Assembly: GCA_964616135.1 (NCBI GenBank)
Contig: CAZTTQ010000001.1
Location: 43,875 to 107,874 of the forward strand
Origin: an uncultured Gammaproteobacteria bacterium
Lineage (GTDB): Bacteria > Patescibacteriota > Patescibacteriia > UBA9934 > GWF2-40-263
Reading direction: 5' to 3'
DNA: 64,000 bases
Below the pieces are notes generated by a model. That model saw only the letters and a list, made by a program, of their open reading frames with translations. It did no database searches and was not told the DNA's origin. This document shows positions 3,697-15,542 of the stretch, in pieces. Position numbers and translations under genes: made by a program. Within the stretch, counting starts at the first letter, position 1. Every line of letters starts with the position of its first letter.

Positions 3697-3702
3697 GCGG
3701 GA

Positions 3703-3730
3703 AAGAAAAAGCGGCCCGACGAAGTGTCGG
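3703..3730. terminator. imperfect hairpin between convergent pepA and 3742..5265
   Basis: gcggcccgac...gtcggaccgc inverted repeat in 45-nt convergent gap. Confidence 0.35.
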
Positions 3731-3741
3731 ACCGCGAGAGA

Positions 3742-5265
3742 TTACTCGGCGTCTGCCATTGCCGGGACGAACGTCACGGCGACGACGGACGGGGTGAGAT
3801 GGCGGCCGTTCGGGTGGAACAGGACGACGTCGCCGTCGCGCGGGAAGTAGCGGTGGTTGCCGCGTTCCTGCACGTAGAGCGTCTTTCCGTCCTCGACCGC
3901 CTGTTGGAAGCCGCCCTTGGGGTGGCGCCGCCGCACGATGGTGCCGAGTCGGTACCCCGCCAGCTGGAGATGGCGGCGAAGGGCCTTCTCCAGGCCATCG
4001 TCCTCGCGTCCCAGCTGCCGCCAGGCGACGTACACCTTGGAGGCGTTGGCGGACAGGAGGACCCGGCTCACGGTCTTGGCGTAAAAGCCGTGGCGCTCCT
4101 CCGGCGGCAGCTCCAGGAGGAGCGTGAACAGGAACTGCGCCGTCGGCTTCACGAGGAAGTCCTTCTCGACGGCCGCCAGCCGTTCCGCGAAGCGCGTGCG
4201 CTGGTCGACGGACAGACGTGCCCACTCGTCCGCGGGGACGTCCGAGACGGAATCGAGGCGGTCCAGCGCGTCTCCGACGATGATGTCCGCGGCGGCAGCG
4301 TCGAGGCGGCGCAGGATCCGCGCCCGCGCCTTGACCGTCTCGCCCGGGGCCTTCTCGGCGCAGAGGAGGAGTGCGGTCTCGAGCTCGCGGTTCGTCAGCA
4401 CGGACCAGGGGTTCAACCCGCAGAAAGCCGCCGTCCACTTCTCGGCCGCGGTCGGCCGCGCGTGCGGCGGAAACTCGAGCACGAAGTGGAAGGGGACGTT
4501 GGGCGGGAGACCGGCGTCCATCCGGGCGTTCTGCTCTGCCACCGTCTTCTCGATGGACGGCCAGGCCTTGTCCGGGGCACGGACGAGCTCGTCGTGGCGC
4601 CCGTTGCGCCCGTGTTCGATGCCCAGCCTCCGGACGGTCATCGCGATCGGACTTGCGTCCTCCGGTCGCTCGATCCCGTACCGTAGGAAGTCATGGACGT
4701 CGTTTGCCATCCCCGGTTCGATCCGCGTCCCGCGCAGGCGCTCGAGGAGCGCCTCGGCCATCGTCGCGCGGGAGACGCCTGCCATGGCGGCGGCACGCAC
4801 CCACTCGTTGTTGGTGGCGCCGAAGCGGGGATAGAGATCGCGGACGCAGCGGGTGCGGCCCTCGGGGGAGAGAAGCCGCAGCAGCTCCGGGGAGATGAGG
4901 AAGCTCCGGAAGAACCAGTGGGACGAGAGACGGACGCCCTCGTTCTTCTCCTGCGGATTTCCCTCCGCCCGGTCGTAGAGGCGGACCACGCTCTCCAGGA
5001 AGATGTCCGCGTCGCCGACGATCTGCAGGAACGGTTCCGGGTTCTCCGCGATCCAGCGCATTCCCATGGACACGGGGATCGTCTCGAACCCGCAGGCATC
5101 GATGAGGAGGATGAACCGCAGGAGGTCCGTCGGGGTCGCCGTGCCCGCCTTGACCTTCGCGGGGAAGGCGTCGCGGGCGGCCTGGAGTTCGTCGTAGGCC
5201 GTCCAGGTTCCCGCGATTTCCTGTCCCAGGATCTGTCGTGCGTCGATCAAGCTGACGGTCTGCAT
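3742..5265 (-). CDS. hypothetical protein (~507 aa), no recognisable family
   Basis: Protein-like composition and high GC3; start assigned to MQTVSL (M35) because the first 34 codons have low GC3 and the M35 ATG has GGAG 7 nt upstream; overlapping + strand ORF 3724..4686 has antisense-type composition. Confidence 0.6.
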   Translation of the reverse strand: MQTVSLIDARQILGQEIAGTWTAYDELQAARDAFPAKVKAGTATPTDLLRFILLIDACGFETIPVSMGMRWIAENPEPFLQIVGDADIFLESVVRLYDRAEGNPQEKNEGVRLSSHWFFRSFLISPELLRLLSPEGRTRCVRDLYPRFGATNNEWVRAAAMAGVSRATMAEALLERLRGTRIEPGMANDVHDFLRYGIERPEDASPIAMTVRRLGIEHGRNGRHDELVRAPDKAWPSIEKTVAEQNARMDAGLPPNVPFHFVLEFPPHARPTAAEKWTAAFCGLNPWSVLTNRELETALLLCAEKAPGETVKARARILRRLDAAAADIIVGDALDRLDSVSDVPADEWARLSVDQRTRFAERLAAVEKDFLVKPTAQFLFTLLLELPPEERHGFYAKTVSRVLLSANASKVYVAWRQLGREDDGLEKALRRHLQLAGYRLGTIVRRRHPKGGFQQAVEDGKTLYVQERGNHRYFPRDGDVVLFHPNGRHLTPSVVAVTFVPAMADAE

Positions 5266-5385
5266 CAAGGTCTCCGGTCGGTCGTCGAAAGACGTTGCCG
5301 AGTGAGAGGGGGGGGGTCTCGCATTCTCCGAAGGATTTCGAAGAAATACGAGGGGCGTTCTTATCATAAAAAACCCACGTTGTCA

Positions 5386-5676
5386 ATGGATATAGACGAT
5401 ATGCATCTCCTCCAACCGACGCACCGAAAATGGGTATTGGTTTGCACGAACATGAAAGAACCCGGGAAACCCTGTTGTGGGATCCAGGGGAGTGCCGACC
5501 TGCACCTGAAGTTAAAGGAGGCCATGAAGGCGGCGGACCTGACCGTCCGCGTGTCCAAGACCGGCTGTTTGGACCGTTGTTCCGAGGGACCCGTTGTCGC
5601 CATCATGCCGGATAACCGTTGGTTTGGCGGCGTTACCGAAGCGGACATCCCGGCCATCATTGAAGCGGCGAAATAA
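5386..5676 (+). CDS. thioredoxin-like [2Fe-2S] ferredoxin domain protein
   Basis: The Cys pattern C-x9-CC-x29-C-x3-C matches thioredoxin-like 2Fe-2S ferredoxins (NuoE/Fd4-like); the gene ends at a perfect palindromic terminator. Confidence 0.7.
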   Translation: MDIDDMHLLQPTHRKWVLVCTNMKEPGKPCCGIQGSADLHLKLKEAMKAADLTVRVSKTGCLDRCSEGPVVAIMPDNRWFGGVTEADIPAIIEAAK

Positions 5677-5682
5677 AAACGC

Positions 5683-5706
5683 ACGGCCCCGCGGGGCCGT
5701 GTTTGC
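5683..5706. terminator. bidirectional intrinsic terminator (cacggccccgcggggccgtg + TTTGCGTT)
   Basis: Perfect 20-nt palindrome followed by T-rich tail. Confidence 0.7.
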
Positions 5707-5710
5707 GTTG

Positions 5711-5746
5711 GAAGAAAAATCCCCCGGCCACAGGCGTGGTCGGGGG
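5711..5746 (-). terminator. minus-strand terminator of lipoprotein paralog 1; a copy of the cassette hairpin (cccccggccacAGGCGtggtcggggg + T-rich)
   Basis: Same hairpin sequence as at 7406-7432 and 8918-8944; T/A tract gaagaaaaat adjacent. Confidence 0.6.
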
Positions 5747-5752
5747 AGAAGG

Positions 5753-7279
5753 TCAGAACGACAGGTCTTTGCCGGCGACGAGCGGGTCGCCGTTGACGCA
5801 GAAGCCCTGCGCCATGACGAGGTCCGTGTAGCAGAAGCGGAGAATCTCGACGCGGAGGACGTTGCCCGGAACGGCCCGGGTCGCGTCCATTGCGAAACGG
5901 AAGACCCGTTCGGTCCCGTTTGCAAGCGTCCCGCCGTTTCCCGCCATGTTGATGACTGAGACCGTGGGGGAGATCGCCGTCCGGGTGACATCCGCGAAGA
6001 GTGCGGCGTCCGGCAGGGCGGCGTCCGTGGTCCGAACCGCCTCCGTGCCGCCGTACCACCCGTCGTGGGTGAGGCGGTACCGTACGGAGGTGAGGAGGGC
6101 GTCGTGTCCGGCGGGTGCGGCGGGGTTCACTACGCGGAACGCCAGCGTGTTGGCGAACGACGGGGAGACGGTTCCCGCGGGGGAATCGTCCGTCCGCGCG
6201 GCTTGCGGCATCTGGGGGATCCGGATGAACGCGTAGTCGTGGTGGGACGCGTTCGTCGCGCCGTAGGCGATCTCCGGAACTTCTCCCGTATCGGCGTCCC
6301 GCAGGTCGATGGACCGGAGGGACGCGGCCAGGAGGAAGTTCGGCGCGCCGACGTTCGCGTTCGTCCAACAGAAGACGCCGAGTTCGCCGGATCCATGCAG
6401 GACGAACGGTTGGTCCGCGAACGAGAGGACGGTCCGTCCCTCTTCGGCCGCGGGACGCCGTCCGGATGCCTGTCCCGGAGGCGTGGTTGGCCCCGCGTAG
6501 GAAACGTAGCAGGCGCCGATACGGTCGCGCAGCAAGGAGGAAGACGCCTCCCAGACGTTGGTCCCGTCGAACGGGGCCACGTCCTGGACGACGTCGAGGT
6601 CGATCCTGGCCACGCGGACGTTCCGGTCTCCGGCACGGACGGAGAGGCGGAGGAACTGGAACAGGCCGCCCGGATACGACTGGGTGACCGTGTCCTCGTC
6701 CGGAGACGCGTCCCCGACCGCCACGATGCCGGGCGGCGGGTTTACCAACGGTTCGCATGAGCGGCCGTCCGCGGCGAGGGTTTCCCCCCGTTCGCAGCGC
6801 CGCTTGCACGTGGCGGTTGCCGTGTCGAACAGCCATCCCTCGTCACACGTGACGTCGTAGGCGCAGGATGCATGGCCGGTCTCCCGGTCCATGTTCGGCG
6901 AGAGGCCGTCCGGACACGTGATCGTGACGTCCGGGCACTCCTTTTCGGAGAACACCTCCGCGCCCGTGGAGAGACAGACGTAGAAGATCACTTCTTCCGG
7001 CGGCTGCGTCGTGGGGCACGCGCCCGCGCGCGGGCGGATGGAACCGTCGGCGCAGACGTAGACGCGCTTCTCGACGACCTTCGCAGGACCGCCGAACGGA
7101 TGGCAGGCGATCCCGCCGTCTTCCACCACCGCCCCTTCATCGGGGAGGCAGGGGACTGAGAAGCAGGCGCCGGAGGAGGTCGCGTACGACCCTTCCGGGC
7201 ACGAGGAGGAGACGGGGGCGTCTCCACAGGATGCCAGGGCCGATGCGGCCAGGGCGAAGTACATGAGGCGGGTGCGCAT
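5753..7279 (-). CDS. secreted cysteine-rich lipoprotein, paralog 1 of a tandem family (508 aa)
   Basis: The signal peptide ends in a lipobox (ALASC) and the N-terminal half is cysteine-rich. The C-terminal region aligns with paralog 2 (e.g. VRVDVTGFCYRD / LRVEILRFCYTD). The gene has an ATG start with GGAGGT. Confidence 0.75.
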   Translation of the reverse strand: MRTRLMYFALAASALASCGDAPVSSSCPEGSYATSSGACFSVPCLPDEGAVVEDGGIACHPFGGPAKVVEKRVYVCADGSIRPRAGACPTTQPPEEVIFYVCLSTGAEVFSEKECPDVTITCPDGLSPNMDRETGHASCAYDVTCDEGWLFDTATATCKRRCERGETLAADGRSCEPLVNPPPGIVAVGDASPDEDTVTQSYPGGLFQFLRLSVRAGDRNVRVARIDLDVVQDVAPFDGTNVWEASSSLLRDRIGACYVSYAGPTTPPGQASGRRPAAEEGRTVLSFADQPFVLHGSGELGVFCWTNANVGAPNFLLAASLRSIDLRDADTGEVPEIAYGATNASHHDYAFIRIPQMPQAARTDDSPAGTVSPSFANTLAFRVVNPAAPAGHDALLTSVRYRLTHDGWYGGTEAVRTTDAALPDAALFADVTRTAISPTVSVINMAGNGGTLANGTERVFRFAMDATRAVPGNVLRVEILRFCYTDLVMAQGFCVNGDPLVAGKDLSF

Positions 7280-7346
7280 GGCACCTCCGATATCCCCGGA
7301 ATGGGGACGGGTTTTGGCCCTTTCAAGGGGGCCTGGTTGGGAGAGA
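7280..7346 (-). promoter_or_regulatory. conserved structured 5' leader (copy 1): two hairpins GGCCC-CCUUGAAA-GGGCC and UCCCC-AUUCC-GGGGA before GGAGG
   Basis: ~65 nt of near-identical sequence also at 9860-9925 and 10383-10450, read on the minus strand. Confidence 0.5.
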
Positions 7347-7356
7347 GCAAGGACGA

Positions 7357-7385
7357 ATGATAGGTCTTTTTCAACCGTTTGTCAA
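7357..7385 (-). promoter_or_regulatory. sigma70-type promoter TTGACA-N17-TATCAT (minus strand) for paralog 1
   Basis: Exact consensus -35 and 17-nt spacer; part of repeated cassette. Confidence 0.6.
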
Positions 7386-7393
7386 TCGTCCAT

Positions 7394-7432
7394 GGAAAAG
7401 AAAATCCCCCGGCCACGGCGTGTGGTCGGGGG
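7394..7432 (-). terminator. terminator of paralog 2 (hairpin cccccggccac/gtggtcggggg + ATTTTCTTTTCC on minus strand); cassette copy A
   Basis: GC hairpin immediately followed by T-rich run downstream of stop at 7439. Confidence 0.6.
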
Positions 7433-7438
7433 AGAGCG

Positions 7439-8791
7439 TCAGAACGTCCACGTCTCGCCCGTGATGAGCACGGAGGAGTTGTCCAGGCAGGTTTCCACGT
7501 CCGCGAACGGATCGCGGTAGCAGAACCCGGTGACGTCGACGCGGACGGTGTCCGTGCCGGGCGCCCGCGCCTGCTCCGTGTCCATCTGGAACCGGAGCGT
7601 CAGCGGACGGGACGCCTGGATCGGGACCGCGTCGCGGGCCGTGTCCTGCATGAGGAACAGGAATTCCCCGTTGCTGGCGTTCGTCTGGATGTTGGTGAAC
7701 AACGAGCGCGACGGGTCGCGGATGTCGGTCACCCGTACGGTGGAAGGCGCGGTGTACCAGCCGTTGTCGATGATCGCAAACTGGACGGACCAGGTCTGCA
7801 GATCTCGACAGGACGCGTCGGCCACCACGTCGAACCGGAGGACTTCCCGGAGCGTGGTGGGCGTGGTGGGGTCCCAGTCCGTCTGCCCGACCTGGAGGAC
7901 GGGCGGCGGACAGGGGGGAAGCGGCGCGGCGCGGACCTGGTAGCTGAAATCGCTGTTCAGGTCCTCGAAGGTCACTTCGCTGCCGACGATGGGTTCGCCG
8001 GTTTCCGCGTCGACCAGGGTGACCAGGTCGAGCACGAGCGCCACGTGGTATGCGACCGGCGACGGCTTGAGGTCGCACTGGACGCTCACGTTGATGGACG
8101 TCCCCGAGCCGACGGCTTCGGGAAAGAACACCATCGCCTGCTCGGACAGGGGGACGTGGTCCAAGGACACTGGCCCCGCGACCTGCGCGGTGCTTGCATC
8201 CGTCAGCGTGCAGTCGCCGAGGTATTCGGCGACGTCCGCCTGGGTATGGAGCCACAGGGTCCGGTCGGGCACGACGCCGTCCTGCTCCACGCCGACGTAG
8301 GCGAGGAACCGGACGTCGCGCAACGTCACGGCGCGCGTCTCGTCCTGGATGATGAGCGGAAACAGGTCGGTGCGGGTTCCCACCGTCGTGTCGACGAGCC
8401 GCGGGACGCCGCCGTTCGGCGGGCGGACGGAGACGGTCCCCCGGACCTGCTGTCGGACACAGCCGTCGCCGGAGGCGTTCACCGTCTGGCCGGGCGGGCA
8501 CACCTTGAGGCAGGCCTTGGAGACCTCCTCGTACGCGTACCCGTCCGCGCAGGCCCGGGGACAGTCTTCCGGACGATCGACGTAGGTGTCGGTCGCCACG
8601 CACTTGTACTTGGTGACCGTCTCCTTTACGGTCACGGTTTCCTTGATGACGACCGGGGCGTCGACCGGGCACCGGGCCGGGTCGGTCACCCGCGTCTGCG
8701 CCGCGTCGCGGCAGACGTATTCCTGCGGCACGTCACCGCAGGCGGTGGCAAGGGAAAAGAGCAAGACGAACGGGACAGGGGGACGGAACAT
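7439..8791 (-). CDS. secreted cysteine-containing lipoprotein, paralog 2 (451 aa)
   Basis: Start taken at MFRPPVPFVLLFSLATAC (lipobox) with AAGGAG 6 nt upstream; C-terminal homology to paralog 1; longer track ORF to 8887 rejected. Confidence 0.7.
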   Translation of the reverse strand: MFRPPVPFVLLFSLATACGDVPQEYVCRDAAQTRVTDPARCPVDAPVVIKETVTVKETVTKYKCVATDTYVDRPEDCPRACADGYAYEEVSKACLKVCPPGQTVNASGDGCVRQQVRGTVSVRPPNGGVPRLVDTTVGTRTDLFPLIIQDETRAVTLRDVRFLAYVGVEQDGVVPDRTLWLHTQADVAEYLGDCTLTDASTAQVAGPVSLDHVPLSEQAMVFFPEAVGSGTSINVSVQCDLKPSPVAYHVALVLDLVTLVDAETGEPIVGSEVTFEDLNSDFSYQVRAAPLPPCPPPVLQVGQTDWDPTTPTTLREVLRFDVVADASCRDLQTWSVQFAIIDNGWYTAPSTVRVTDIRDPSRSLFTNIQTNASNGEFLFLMQDTARDAVPIQASRPLTLRFQMDTEQARAPGTDTVRVDVTGFCYRDPFADVETCLDNSSVLITGETWTF

Positions 8792-8868
8792 GGGTTTACT
8801 CCTTCGGTGGGGCGCGGCCTTCGCCATTACGATAACACGTCCGTTCATTTGTGATAGGGCGAGGAGTG

Positions 8869-8897
8869 ACGATAGGCGTTTTTCCAAGGTTTGTCAA
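8869..8897 (-). promoter_or_regulatory. sigma70-type promoter TTGACA-N17-TATCGT (minus strand) for paralog 2; cassette copy B
   Basis: Consensus -35, 17-nt spacer; ~85 nt cassette nearly identical to 7345-7440. Confidence 0.6.
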
Positions 8898-8905
8898 CCG
8901 TCCGT

Positions 8906-8944
8906 GGAAAAGAAAATCCCCCGGCCACAGTGTGTGGTCGGGGG
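8906..8944 (-). terminator. terminator of paralog 3 (cassette copy B hairpin + T-rich)
   Basis: cccccggccacagtgtgtggtcggggg hairpin followed on minus strand by attttcttttcc. Confidence 0.6.
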
Positions 8945-8959
8945 AGGTAGGGGGCGCGT

Positions 8960-9859
8960 TTATGGCGTGTCGCGGGGATCGGGCTCCGTCCCGCAGAGGA
9001 TGTACCGGTTGCCGGCCAGCACGTCGAACGCCGTTTCAGAGAGGATGATCCTCTTACCGGTGGTTAGCCCGTACGCTTCGGTCCGGGAGACCACGAGGCT
9101 CGTGGCCCAGCCGTTGAAGCCGTGGGCATTCCGGCAGACGTTCATGTCGCCGGAGAGGCCAGTGTTGAGCTGGCTCGTCCCTCCCTTTGGGACGAACATC
9201 CGGATGGGGATTTGCGCGTCCGCGTTCACCGCTCCGTCGGCGGAGGCGTGGTACGCCACGTTGCCTTCGTCGGTGTAGTACACGTGACTGGCCGTGATCC
9301 AGCTCGCCCAGTCGCCCTGGAGGCCGAGGCTGCCCAGGCCGAGCGCGACCTTGGTGACCACGAAGTCTTCTCCGACCGCGTGGAACACGAACCCGCTCGT
9401 CTCCGCCCAGCTACCATCGGTTGCCGGAGCGTATTCGACGCGCTCGGTGCCGGCGAGGGTCACGTACACGCGGCTGGTGGCCGCGATGCGGGAGAGCTCG
9501 TCGCCGCCGACCGCCGTGCAGGTGCCGTCCGACTGCAGGACGTTGCCGGCGGCGCAAGGGAACTTCCACGCCGGCGTGCACGACCCATCCTCGTGGAGAA
9601 GATCTTCGTCCCCGCAAGGGAACACCCAGGGTGTCTCGGGGTCGGCCGGCGGGACGCAGGTTCCGTCGGACGCCTCGAGCATGCCGCGGGCGCAGTGCTT
9701 CTCCCGGGCGACCAGGTCGTCCGGATCGGCGCAGACGCCGAGGGACGTGAGCACTTCGCCGGCCCTGCAGGGGAACTTCCACGCCGCGGTGTCGCCGCAG
9801 GCGGAGAGGGTCGCCGCAAGCAGGATTGCCGCGGCGTAGAACGACGTGTGGATGCGCAA
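8960..9859 (-). CDS. secreted lipoprotein, paralog 3 (299 aa) with three internal W-[KV]-F-P-C...G.C repeats
   Basis: The signal peptide ends in the lipobox LSAC. The apparent start codon is TTG, directly after the conserved leader with GGAGGCGCG. Three ~35-aa repeats (WKFPCRAGEVL, WVFPCGDEDLL, WKFPCAAGNVL) are visible. Confidence 0.7.
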   Translation of the reverse strand: MRIHTSFYAAAILLAATLSACGDTAAWKFPCRAGEVLTSLGVCADPDDLVAREKHCARGMLEASDGTCVPPADPETPWVFPCGDEDLLHEDGSCTPAWKFPCAAGNVLQSDGTCTAVGGDELSRIAATSRVYVTLAGTERVEYAPATDGSWAETSGFVFHAVGEDFVVTKVALGLGSLGLQGDWASWITASHVYYTDEGNVAYHASADGAVNADAQIPIRMFVPKGGTSQLNTGLSGDMNVCRNAHGFNGWATSLVVSRTEAYGLTTGKRIILSETAFDVLAGNRYILCGTEPDPRDTP

Positions 9860-9925
9860 CGCGCCTCCGATGTCCCCGGGATGGGGACGGTTTTGGCCCT
9901 TTCAATGGGGCCGAGTTGCGAGAGA
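9860..9925 (-). promoter_or_regulatory. conserved structured 5' leader (copy 3)
   Basis: GGCCCCAUUGAAAGGGCC and GUCCCCAUCCCGGGGAC hairpins then GGAGG; near-identical to copies at 7280 and 10383. Confidence 0.5.
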
Positions 9926-9973
9926 GCTGGAGCTGGTCAAGGCTCGCGAGGGATTCGTGAGCTTTGTGCAGCG

Positions 9974-10004
9974 CCCGACGCGGAGAGAGTCTCTCGCGTC
10001 GGGG
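9974..10004. other. strong near-perfect palindrome (cccgacgcggagaga g tctctcgcgtcgggg) between paralogs 4 and 3, no T-tract
   Basis: ~15-bp stem read directly; may be a processing/stability element or partial terminator; no clear promoter for paralog 3 downstream of it. Confidence 0.4.
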
Positions 10005-10016
10005 AAAGAGAATGGG

Positions 10017-10382
10017 TCACTTCGGAGGGATGACACCTTGGATGTCGTAGTCCATTATGGCGTCGCACTGCAGCTGGTCCTGCATATTGTGACCGCAGAA
10101 GTCGGCGGATGGGTCGTGGGTGACCACGATCGGTGCAATAGGTACGGGGTCTATGTGGAAGAAGAAGATCGGCGGATCCATCTCCTGAGCCATCTTGATT
10201 ACCGGCCCGGGCGGGCAGGAGCGGGGGTCGTTCGCCTCGGTGTCGTCGGCACAGACGTACACCTTTTCCGTCTGGACCACGACCTTCTCAGTCGTGACAG
10301 TGACGATCTCCGACTCGCAGGCCGCGATCAGGTTCGCCAGGGCCAGGATGGCCGCGGCGCAGAACGTGGTGTAAGCGCGCAA
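10017..10382 (-). CDS. small secreted lipoprotein, paralog 4 (121 aa)
   Basis: Signal peptide + lipobox (IAAC); TTG start after conserved leader GGAGGCGCT; Cys-containing. Confidence 0.65.
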   Translation of the reverse strand: MRAYTTFCAAAILALANLIAACESEIVTVTTEKVVVQTEKVYVCADDTEANDPRSCPPGPVIKMAQEMDPPIFFFHIDPVPIAPIVVTHDPSADFCGHNMQDQLQCDAIMDYDIQGVIPPK

Positions 10383-10450
10383 AGCGCCTCCGATGTCCCC
10401 GGGATGGGGACGGTTTTGGCCCTTTCAAGGGGGCCTGGTTGGGAACGTGC
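10383..10450 (-). promoter_or_regulatory. conserved structured 5' leader (copy 4)
   Basis: Same two-hairpin sequence as copies 1 and 3. Confidence 0.5.
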
Positions 10451-10542
10451 TCTTTTGGGCGAGAAGCCCGTACTTAGTGACGTTTCCTAGGCAGAAACAC
10501 TCAATAAATACGGGCCTTCCTCCCTGATCAATTCGAGGGAAA

Positions 10543-10571
10543 ACTATAGCACTTTTTGGCCCGTTTGTCAA
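10543..10571 (-). promoter_or_regulatory. sigma70-type promoter TTGACA-N17-TATAGT (minus strand) heading the lipoprotein array
   Basis: Consensus -35/-10 with 17-nt spacer; flanking sequence ccgtttgtcaatcgt matches the cassette. Confidence 0.55.
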
Positions 10572-10586
10572 TCGTGCCAGGGCAAC

Positions 10587-10619
10587 GAAAAACCCACCCG
10601 TGGAATGGGTGGGTTTTTA
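10587..10619. terminator. bidirectional terminator (aaaaa cccaccc gtggaat gggtggg ttttt)
   Basis: Perfect 7-bp GC stem flanked by A5 and T5; downstream of peroxiredoxin stop. Confidence 0.7.
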
Positions 10620-13637: not shown

Positions 13638-14239
13638 ATAAGATCATCCTGATCGGCGGTTCGCCGACAGCGGGGAAAACCCACGCCGCGAAAGCGCTGG
13701 CCAAGGAACGCAACCTGCCGTGGATGTCCACGGACACGGTGCGCGAGCAGATGCGTGCGCTGGTGAAGCCCGCGGAGTACCCGGCCCTGTTCCGCTTCGC
13801 GGACGAAACGTCGGGCACAGCCGCGGAAGTCCTCACCGGCAACACGCCGGCCCAGATGGTCGCGCATGAAAAGGCCGAGGGGGAGGAAGTGTGGCGCGGC
13901 GTGAAGGCGCTGATTGAAACCGATTACGCGTGGGGCGACTTCATCATGGAAGGCGTCGCCATTCTCCCGCACCTCGTCGCGGAGTTGTCGGTGCCGGATA
14001 AGGAAATCAAGGCCGTGTTCTTGATCGATGAGGATGAGGCGCGCGTACGTAACACGATCTTCACCCGCGGGCTCTGGGACGAAGCGCACAAGTACCCCGA
14101 CGCTGTGAAGGAATTGGAAGTCGCGTGGATCTTGGCGTTCAATGCGTGGATCAAGAAGGAAGCGCAGGCGTACGGTTTCCCGGTCATCTCCGTGAACCGC
14201 ACGGACCATTTGGAAGAATTGAAGCGCCTTACGGCGTAG
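13634..14239 (+). CDS. P-loop NTPase/kinase family protein
   Basis: Walker A GGSPTAGKT near N-terminus; overlaps rsmI stop by 4 nt (ATGA). Confidence 0.55.
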   Translation: MNKIILIGGSPTAGKTHAAKALAKERNLPWMSTDTVREQMRALVKPAEYPALFRFADETSGTAAEVLTGNTPAQMVAHEKAEGEEVWRGVKALIETDYAWGDFIMEGVAILPHLVAELSVPDKEIKAVFLIDEDEARVRNTIFTRGLWDEAHKYPDAVKELEVAWILAFNAWIKKEAQAYGFPVISVNRTDHLEELKRLTA

Positions 14240-14990: not shown

Positions 14991-15542
14991 ATGGATTCCA
15001 CATCGCCCGTTACGTTCGAAGAAACGATTGATTGGAAGGTGGCGTTCTACGTCTATTTGGCCATTGCTGTCATTGTCTTGGCGGGTCGTATCCTTATGGC
15101 TTTCGTCGAAGGTCTCGCTGGGTTCGGGGAGATCGCGGGGTTTGCGGTGGTCATCGCGTTTCTCTCGGTCTGCGGATACTGGTGGTTCCGCGAACGCCAT
15201 ACGACCATCCGTGTAGACCAGACCGGTCTCACTGTCACGGACATAAGCGGCGCCAAGCACATTCCGTTCAACCAGATTCGCTCGGTCCGTCTTGCGCGTA
15301 TCGGCATCGCTCGGCATGGCCACTACGCGTATCTCAGAGAGGCGACGGATTTTAAGACGAATATTCTTAGTTTGCAGCCACGCGTCAATGTGATGTATCG
15401 CAATCCGGGAATGTTCTTTACCTTGAAGCGGGGTGGGCCGAATGCGGTTTTATTGGACATTGGCGCGGATAAGCCTCAAGCCATTCCCTGTAAACGTATC
15501 GATGAACTGCTGACGGCAATCCAATCCGGTCTGTCCCGTTGA
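14991..15542 (+). CDS. hypothetical membrane protein with PH-like (bPH/DUF304-like) C-terminal region
   Basis: Two N-terminal TM helices; lower GC3/atypical codon usage versus neighbours. Confidence 0.5.
   Translation: MDSTSPVTFEETIDWKVAFYVYLAIAVIVLAGRILMAFVEGLAGFGEIAGFAVVIAFLSVCGYWWFRERHTTIRVDQTGLTVTDISGAKHIPFNQIRSVRLARIGIARHGHYAYLREATDFKTNILSLQPRVNVMYRNPGMFFTLKRGGPNAVLLDIGADKPQAIPCKRIDELLTAIQSGLSR

Follow-up and report, generated by a model that had tools for sequence, protein, structure and literature searches.

A conserved, putatively cis-acting 5′ leader RNA of lipoprotein genes in a variable locus of Patescibacteria

What keeps a short non-coding sequence almost unchanged in front of genes whose products have little in common? 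The question is raised by an array of four lipoprotein genes (par1 to par4) on the minus strand of a 64,000-nucleotide stretch of Patescibacteria DNA (GenBank assembly GCA_964616135.1, contig CAZTTQ010000001.1, positions 43,875 to 107,874), hereafter called the window. Three of these genes, par1, par3 and par4, follow copies of one and the same leader. This leader is real and conserved and lies outside every Rfam family; the kind to which it belongs, cis-acting 5′ leaders, is well known. Its pairing pattern and its placement argue that it is a structured cis-acting 5′ leader RNA, located on the sense strand between a promoter or an upstream cistron and the start codon.

The leader, its relatives and its fold

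A previous inspection of the window by a model that saw the letters alone (the sequence-only reading) had described a nearly identical leader of about 65 nucleotides (nt) before paralogs 1, 3 and 4. We found three copies of 68–69 nt with pairwise identities of 86–90% and a mean column identity of 93%; the flanks and the mature coding regions are at background similarity. A core of 36 nt, GGGCCAAAACCGTCCCCATCCCGGGGACATCGGAGG, has two exact copies with 0 mismatches (9864–9899 and 10387–10422) and none in 100 shuffled sequences, and the third copy, upstream of par1, departs from it by a 1-nt insertion and a few substitutions. When the 64 kb were searched with R1, a covariance model built from the three window leaders, these scored 94–100 bits and the next best match 13.5 bits. 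From 5′ to 3′ the leader consists of a hairpin (H1), an A-rich single-stranded linker AAAAC(C)C, a second hairpin (H2), the Shine–Dalgarno (SD) sequence GGAGG and a third hairpin (H3):

7277–7345, minus strand: leader copy 1 (par1), with H1 at 7316–7333, linker at 7309–7315, H2 at 7292–7308, SD GGAGG at 7284–7288 and ATG at 7277–7279; 94 bits
7281–7284 and 7274–7277, minus strand: the two H3 arms of leader copy 1, in which the closing pair of H2 is G·U
9857–9924, minus strand: leader copy 2 (par3), intergenic between par4 and par3, with H1 at 9895–9912, H2 at 9872–9888, SD at 9864–9868 and TTG at 9857–9859; 98 bits
10380–10447, minus strand: leader copy 3 (par4), with H1 at 10418–10435, H2 at 10395–10411, SD at 10387–10391 and TTG at 10380–10382; 99.6 bits

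The TTG starts noted earlier for par3 and par4 hold up. TTG is the only usable start of both genes. An in-frame UGA in the H1 loop closes the frame upstream, and the first start that follows it is this TTG, which matches the position of the par1 ATG exactly and without which the lipoprotein signal peptide would not be produced. Likewise, par2 does have a different leader, as stated before, which is unrelated and folds poorly.

Three other explanations of the repeated sequence were tried and rejected. An upstream open reading frame (ORF) is ruled out by indels of 1–2 nt among the copies, which disrupt every reading frame. An internal promoter fails for the TTGAAA in the H1 loop, which has no acceptable -10 box 17 nt downstream, and in the same way for the TTGACC upstream of the intra-operon copies. 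As an antisense terminator, the stem is followed by just four T residues on the plus strand, and a terminator scan makes no call.

To find relatives, we searched 1.84 billion representative proteins with a profile of par1 and par2, which gave 17 matches at E ≤ 1e-3 (best E 3e-67). Most of these family members begin with a signal peptide like that of par3 and par4, MRxHTxxYAAAILALA..AC. Among the metagenomes from which the relatives came are SRR22387933, SRR22387810, SRR22387796, SRR22387763, SRR25018355 and ERZ724505. On the contigs of the family, R1 detected the leader in L086 (85.8 bits), L083 (68.4), L084 (65.5), L089 (60.8), L090 (50.7), L088 (33.5), a second time in L083 (30.4) and in L091 (26.6). 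A broader model, R2, retrieved the same set and nothing more, so that the total stands at 11 copies in 8 genomes or contigs. L083 is syntenic with the window (DUF3179, SOD, AhpC, array). In L086, AhpC lies upstream and a 2Fe-2S gene and an M17 peptidase lie downstream; the latter two also follow the array in L084, where the upstream flank is beyond the contig end. The sequence-only reading had proposed a cis-regulatory RNA element and had named absence of the leader from orthologous arrays as the observation that would speak against it. Relatives, the syntenic array included, carry the leader, and together with the compensatory substitutions in H2 described below this supports the proposal in part, namely as to a conserved cis-acting RNA element.

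Neighbouring genes and 80 loci retrieved by way of the adjacent superoxide dismutase (SOD) assign the window to the Patescibacteria, with a best SOD identity of 79%. These 80 loci, from other Patescibacteria, contained neither the lipoproteins (tblastn) nor the leader (R1 and R2). Exact-pattern scans for the leader returned 0 genome contigs and 0 viral contigs from collections that apparently lack the window's own genome, and the sole match on a metagenome contig is a chance one, on the opposite strand of an atpA-atpG spacer. Word-indexed protein searches with par1 and par4 recovered only the queries themselves, and exact look-ups of par3 and the family protein P0001 led to no contig. In the data within reach the leader is confined to a small clade of Patescibacteria and to one lipoprotein signal-peptide module.

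H1 has the form GGCCC-CYUWGAAA-GGGCC, its loop ending in GAAA, and H2 is a GC hairpin, GUCCCC-AUCCC-GGGGAC, that ends 3–4 nt before GGAGG. Both are present in every minimum-free-energy fold of the window leaders, in agreement with the two GC hairpins that had been placed 5′ of the SD. Pairs were counted over the 11 copies from 8 genomes or contigs, registered by hand with N padding. In H2, 100% of the cells are paired, and 4 of the 7 pairs show two-sided (compensatory) changes: U-A to C-G, C-G to U-A with a U·G intermediate (L083), C-G to G-C to A-U, and, in L089 and L090, an inserted pair (U-A or C-G). The covariation score was reached by 0 of 500 shuffles, and slid controls gave no compensatory change. 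Stem and loop both vary in sequence (loops AUCCC, AUUCC, ACCCC, AUCA and AAAA). Read from the opposite strand, the G·U pairs that H2 contains in par1 and L083 would turn into C·A mismatches, which assigns the fold to the mRNA strand. Since H2 keeps its pairing through compensatory changes and admits G·U on the sense strand only, we conclude that it is maintained as RNA structure, and we hold this with high confidence.

H1 behaves differently from the freely covarying H2. Its pairing is kept in the aligned copies with one-sided (wobble) changes only and no two-sided change, and in L088 and L091 it is shortened on both arms to GGCU-GAAA-GGCC. What is invariant among the copies is the sequence GAAAGG(G)CCAAAAC(C)C, together with the SD GGAGG. 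In H3 (GCGC-loop-GCGC) every copy keeps its pairs, two wobble changes included, around a loop of 3–6 nt: the 5′ arm begins at the final G of the SD, bases 1 and 2 of the start codon lie in the loop, and base 3 together with an invariant Arg codon makes up the 3′ arm. RNAalifold, applied to six intra-operon spacers, independently predicted H1, H2 and H3 as well as a hairpin after the preceding stop codon and a further upstream helix. Two additional pairings were considered and discarded. One is a long-range helix that would join a CU-rich tract to the SD and so close a three-way junction; only 76% of its cells are paired, and it has no two-sided change. The other, pairing of the H1 3′ arm with a GGCCC in the signal-peptide region, is missing in par3, L086 and L090.

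Genes, signal peptide and a variable island

The genes of the array and their promoters are as follows; lipoboxes ([LVI][ASTVI][GAS]C) were read by eye from the translations of par1 to par4.

10017–10382, minus strand: par4, 121-amino-acid (aa) lipoprotein, TTG start, lipobox IAAC; resembles P0004 and other family members in their N-terminal part
8960–9859, minus strand: par3, 299-aa lipoprotein, TTG start, lipobox LSAC
7439–8791, minus strand: par2, 450-aa lipoprotein, ATG start, lipobox ATAC; different signal peptide and no leader
5753–7279, minus strand: par1, 508-aa lipoprotein, ATG start, lipobox LASC
10543–10571, minus strand: promoter of par4 (and par3), sigma-70-type TTGACA-17-TATAGT; a terminator at 10592–10610 precedes it
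8869–8897, minus strand: promoter of par2, TTGACA-17-TATCGT; the leader downstream is unrelated, which makes par2 the negative case
7357–7385, minus strand: promoter of par1, TTGACA-17-TATCAT; a terminator hairpin precedes it

The earlier description of four paralogs stands for par1 and par2, which are homologous along their entire length (E 1e-16), and not for the other two beyond their beginnings: par3 shares with the other array proteins only the signal peptide and a Cys-rich N-terminus, and par4 little more than the signal peptide and an N-terminal stretch. In its predicted structure (model mc729bcae22ff, pLDDT, the predicted local distance difference test, 74.6), par1 has a disordered Cys-rich N-terminal stalk followed by tandem beta-sandwich, immunoglobulin (Ig)-like domains. 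The best PDB matches were Ig-like domains of the Gram-positive adhesins SpaP, BspA, AspA and PrgB and integrin legs, all with low TM-scores.

Near-consensus sigma-70 promoters (TTGACA-17-TATxxT), each with a terminator before it, precede par4, par2 and par1. For par3 we found no promoter of its own; its leader sits within the 157-nt spacer between par4 and par3. The inferred transcription start of par1 lies about 15–20 nt before H1, roughly where the leader begins, and the par4 leader forms the last 68 nt of a 5′ untranslated region (UTR) of about 155 nt. The terminator-plus-promoter cassettes upstream of par1 (7357–7436) and par2 (8869–8948), both on the minus strand, are near-identical repeats. 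Promoters of the family in several genomes, and in the window as well (10543–10573, minus strand), have the common spacer AAA(A/C)GGGCCAAAAAGTG. The 12-mer AAAGGGCCAAAA of this spacer recurs in the leader (H1 3′ arm and linker); other promoters of the window are without it.

All 11 leader copies (11/11) precede a gene with one type of signal peptide, MRxH/YT..AIxAxA..AC, and the leader was not found at the three family genes with other signal peptides that we examined (par2, a 430-aa gene of L086, and P0005). The genes behind it start with TTG (6), GTG (2) or ATG (3). It also stands before internal cistrons that have no promoter, namely par3, both copies in L083, and those in L084, L086 and L089. 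Averaged over pairs, identity is 47% from -140 to -69, 69% in the leader, 72% in the signal-peptide codons and 52–54% in the mature region, which can be par1-type, par3, the short par4 or, in L083, a metalloprotease-like protein with an HExxH motif. The gene for the latter (L083, 2880–3596, plus strand) encodes a 238-aa lipoprotein with a zincin-like HExxH, weak Reprolysin and M66 matches and the same signal peptide. Its leader copy lacks H1, and H2, the SD and H3 can therefore persist without H1.

Nucleotides are conserved in the signal-peptide codons (window 7214–7279, 9794–9859 and 10317–10382, minus strand, and their homologues) even at synonymous positions. The run GCC GCG GCC ATC CTG GCC CTG GCG occurs in five genes from four genomes, and the mean identity of this region is slightly above that of the leader. 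The window has a GC content of 62%, and the codon bias of such a genome may explain part of this conservation. In L090 (5458–5480), the public gene call places the beginning of P0011 at the GTG at 5458, immediately upstream of the H2 3′ arm; by homology the start is at another GTG, at 5479 and 5 nt downstream of GGAGG. In two more distant Patescibacteria (L031, about 13640–13690, and L032, about 15190–15225), the initiation region of a lipoprotein gene reads AAAGGAGGGCCAAAAGATG, which resembles the H1 3′ arm and linker, GAAAGGGCCAAAAC. From this likeness, part of the leader might have descended from, or might mimic, a ribosome-binding site.

The array occupies an island (window about 3700–10600) between AhpC on one side and the 2Fe-2S gene and M17 peptidase on the other. 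Gene content here differs in every related genome: the flanking housekeeping genes share 74–88% DNA identity with those of the window, and the lipoproteins between them are not the same. In L003 (11241–12866, flanks at about 74% nucleotide identity) the island holds only a remnant of about 190 aa of the family C-terminal domain, without signal peptide or leader. A 541-aa ORF without Pfam match (3742–5367, minus strand), between the 2Fe-2S gene and the M17 peptidase, is missing at that position in L086 and may be another variable insertion beside the island. The window leaders are 86–90% identical to each other versus 83–86% to that of L086; being no closer to one another than to L086, they are not explained merely by recent duplication or fresh conversion.

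Two further conserved elements accompany the leader:

10458–10523, minus strand: long hairpin in the upstream part of the par4 5′ UTR, about 27 bp, near-perfect; RNAalifold gives 27 pairs, 4 with compensatory change
9925–10016, minus strand: spacer within the operon, conserved, on the 5′ side of leader copy 2; compared in 6 sequences from 5 genomes

The long hairpin is kept in 5 genomes (also L083 about 2448–2513, L089 about 5752–5815, L090 and L091). Its base includes an SD-like GGAGGAA, and Rfam returned only a chance-level, miRNA-like match. From its shape it looks like a substrate of an RNase III-type, double-strand-specific RNase or a second leader element. The spacer contains a post-stop hairpin, CCCGACG..CGTCGGG (9974–10003), with compensatory changes and no U-tract. 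It is followed by a helix, GCUG../GCUCACGA..UCGCGAGC../CAGC. In the module shared by the intra-operon spacers, CGCTGYACAAAGCTCACGAA..TCGCGAGCCTTGACCAGC comes after the post-stop hairpin and forms a further helix. Relatives of the spacer module were found in L083 (2735–2815 and 3594–3684), L086 (2615–2705) and L089 (6049–6165). In L083 (2582–2737) and L089 (5884–6051), the promoter-proximal long 5′ UTR precedes a secreted Cys-rich peptide of 51–55 aa and not a par4-like gene, and the leader region at these small-peptide genes is degenerate.

What the leader may do

The leader stands before each cistron, be it after a promoter or inside an operon, and pairs on the sense strand; we therefore place its action after transcription and at the level of the single cistron. 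The sequence of H1 and the linker is invariant, which a pure stabiliser does not need, and this points to a sequence-specific partner. Tentatively, and with somewhat less than even confidence, we infer that such a partner exists and that the leader sets the stability of the mRNA 5′ end and the loading of ribosomes. H2 would be a protective and insulating stem-loop abutting the SD, and H1 with the linker would be the recognition site of the trans-acting partner, which could be the ribosome, an RNase or a protein. The leader would mostly serve genes with a weak start (TTG or GTG) by means of a strong SD. A promoter-proximal version with the hairpin of about 27 bp and a multi-hairpin intercistronic version would fit a design of processing and protection. 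Leader and signal-peptide coding sequence are inherited as one module, attached to unrelated mature domains. Stabilisers of the aprE or STAB-SD type typically have a stem-loop or SD-like sequence at the mature 5′ end or very close to it. In par1 the inferred start, about 15–20 nt before H1, might bring the leader near such an end; the other copies would require a processed 5′ end.

Several observations weigh against this proposal. A pure stabiliser leaves part of the function unexplained, namely the one that keeps H1 and the linker invariant; H1 itself shows no compensatory change, and its conservation could reflect a constraint on primary sequence or even on the DNA. Fold stability is not significant compared with shuffled sequences (z -1.3 to -2.1). 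Accessibility of the SD is not unusual either, at 0.15–0.18 versus a mean of 0.34 in crude same-window controls with a wide spread. Hand registration with N padding favours structure in the pair counts, and the sample, 11 copies from 8 contigs, is narrow. The tight linkage to the signal peptide indicates that inheritance of the module contributes to the conservation.

The main rival partly overlaps with the explanation we favour and differs in taking on/off regulation as the principal function. Here the leader is a translational riboregulator: a trans-acting protein or small RNA binds the H1 loop and the linker (GAAAGGGCCAAAAC), switches ribosome access to the SD, which lies about 25 nt further on, and thereby co-regulates all cistrons that carry the module. 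In its favour are the contrast between an H1 and linker that are fixed in sequence and an H2 that covaries freely, and the presence of one leader for each cistron, internal ones included. Also, most copies allow the CU-rich tract upstream of H1 to pair with the SD (76% of cells), or the SD pairs with codons 3–4, so that alternative SD-masking folds are at hand which a factor could bias. However, the pairing between CU tract and SD lacks two-sided covariation and fails in L088, masking of the SD is not above the genomic background, and no candidate regulator was identified. Switching as the main function is rather doubtful in our judgement. Binding of a protein or another trans-acting factor, one of the options of the sequence-only reading, is possible in its own right, and the strict conservation of H1 and linker hints at it.

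A different kind of explanation moves the constraint to the DNA. Leader and signal-peptide block could be kept alike by gene conversion, or serve as a recombination substrate for shuffling mature domains, the RNA fold being incidental. The same 5′ module does sit on unrelated mature domains (the par1-type adhesin-like protein, par3, par4 and the HExxH protein of L083), and island gene content varies among genomes whose flanks are 74–88% identical, down to the remnant in L003. There is a precedent in the vpma locus of Mycoplasma agalactiae (PMC2268961). Yet compensatory changes in H2 and G·U pairs on the sense strand only indicate selection for RNA pairing, and the window copies resemble each other no more than copies do between genomes, which speaks against ongoing homogenisation. 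In addition, the genes are co-oriented, three of them are preceded by a promoter of their own, and the neighbouring ORFs tested contained no recombinase domain. As the main cause of the conservation we consider this unlikely; recombination in a secondary role is plausible, given the shared design of 5′ UTR and signal peptide and the variable island.

The sequence-only reading had further suggested an RNA thermometer or a ligand-binding site, neither of which is supported. An SD-occluding hairpin that melts to permit translation could be imagined from ensemble folds, which pair most G residues of the SD with codons 3–4 or the upstream CU tract, and from the location of the start codon in H3. 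But the SD lies outside both leader hairpins, between H2 and H3, the register of its pairing partners shifts from copy to copy, its accessibility falls inside the spread of the crude controls, and no ROSE or fourU match was found in Rfam; a thermometer is very unlikely. A small-molecule riboswitch, for instance with tandem hairpins as in guanidine-II (mini-ykkC), would account for two GC-rich hairpins just upstream of the SD and for conserved unpaired nucleotides in one loop and the linker. Against it, the architecture amounts to two or three simple hairpins without a covarying multi-helix junction, the loop of H2 is not conserved, and the associated genes encode surface lipoproteins rather than transporters or metabolic enzymes. 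Rfam 15 gave no match in the window at gathering thresholds and none over the three leaders even at E ≤ 10. We regard a riboswitch as highly improbable. A double-stranded DNA operator for a transcription factor, with H2 as the palindrome, deserves equally little credence: H2 is a perfect inverted repeat and the 12 nt AAAGGGCCAAAA are common to the leader and the family promoter spacer, but half of the copies have no promoter nearby, the arms change in sequence while pairing stays, and G·U pairs break a DNA palindrome.

With a leader that governs 5′-end stability and ribosome loading as the preferred reading, the locus is of interest for several reasons. Post-transcriptional control is nearly uncharted in Patescibacteria (also called CPR, the candidate phyla radiation), which are uncultured, tiny and probably attached to other microbes. 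The leader marks adhesin-like surface lipoproteins in a locus of changing gene content among close relatives. It therefore offers a handle, made up of an RNA motif, a testable stem, a signal peptide and a covariance model, on how the proteins most likely to contact a host are expressed and diversified. It is also a clean case in which conservation is higher in a non-coding sequence than in the genes behind it.

Comparison with known systems

A similar layout is known from the 5′ UTR of Escherichia coli ompA. It is 133 nt long, has two hairpins, the second near the SD, and prolongs the life of the mRNA in dependence on RNase E and Hfq. The leader shares with it the arrangement of two hairpins, the second close to the SD, before the gene of an envelope protein; the ompA 5′ UTR differs in sequence, in its length of 133 nt and in coming from another phylum. 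The guanidine-II (mini-ykkC) riboswitch has tandem small GC-rich hairpins directly upstream of the SD, each with an ACGR tetraloop. The likeness lies in such tandem hairpins just before the SD. In contrast, the ACGR tetraloops are missing here, the H1 loops being CYUWGAAA or GAAA and the H2 loop variable, and the gene context is another one.

The leaders of aprE (Bacillus subtilis), cry3A with its STAB-SD (Bacillus thuringiensis) and hbs are stabilisers of monoderm mRNAs. With these the leader has in common a short 5′ UTR, one or more stable stem-loops near a strong SD, exported or abundant proteins as products and, by its placement, a probable post-transcriptional action in cis; the GAAAGG of H1 resembles the STAB-SD core GAAAGGAGG. 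It differs in that it also occurs inside operons, in the invariance of H1 and linker and in the lack of sequence homology, and it is known so far as a genomic sequence. In work listed in PMC3997798 and PMC5737220, 5′ stem-loops together with ribosome binding are described as stabilising Gram-positive mRNAs, with the aprE leader, STAB-SD and hbs as cases.

As a locus, the array resembles the vpma and vsp systems of mycoplasmas (PMC2268961), which likewise combine clustered surface lipoproteins with a reduced genome; there, too, the mature parts vary, and conservation is found in about 70 nt before each start codon and in the signal-peptide coding region. Each vpma gene of M. agalactiae carries a conserved site of recombination at positions -1 to -72, besides a conserved signal peptide (PMC2268961). 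Those systems have a single promoter, an adjacent tyrosine recombinase (Xer1/Mbr), genes in opposite orientations and site-specific inversions (PMC2268961). The window differs from them by three strong promoters, four genes all on the minus strand and RNA-type covariation in the conserved region. A Pfam scan limited to the 20 larger neighbouring ORFs found no recombinase domain. With co-oriented genes and three promoters besides, inversion of the Vpma type is not supported. The farthest-reading interpretation, which we offer as a speculation with rather poor odds, would nevertheless make the array a CPR counterpart of the mycoplasma variable-lipoprotein systems, operating at the level of RNA and not of DNA inversion. 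Leader and signal peptide would then be a portable cassette for expression and export, fitted to diverse adhesin-like or enzymatic domains in a hypervariable, coordinately controlled surface locus of episymbiotic Patescibacteria, with H1 and the linker docking a dedicated RNA-binding regulator.

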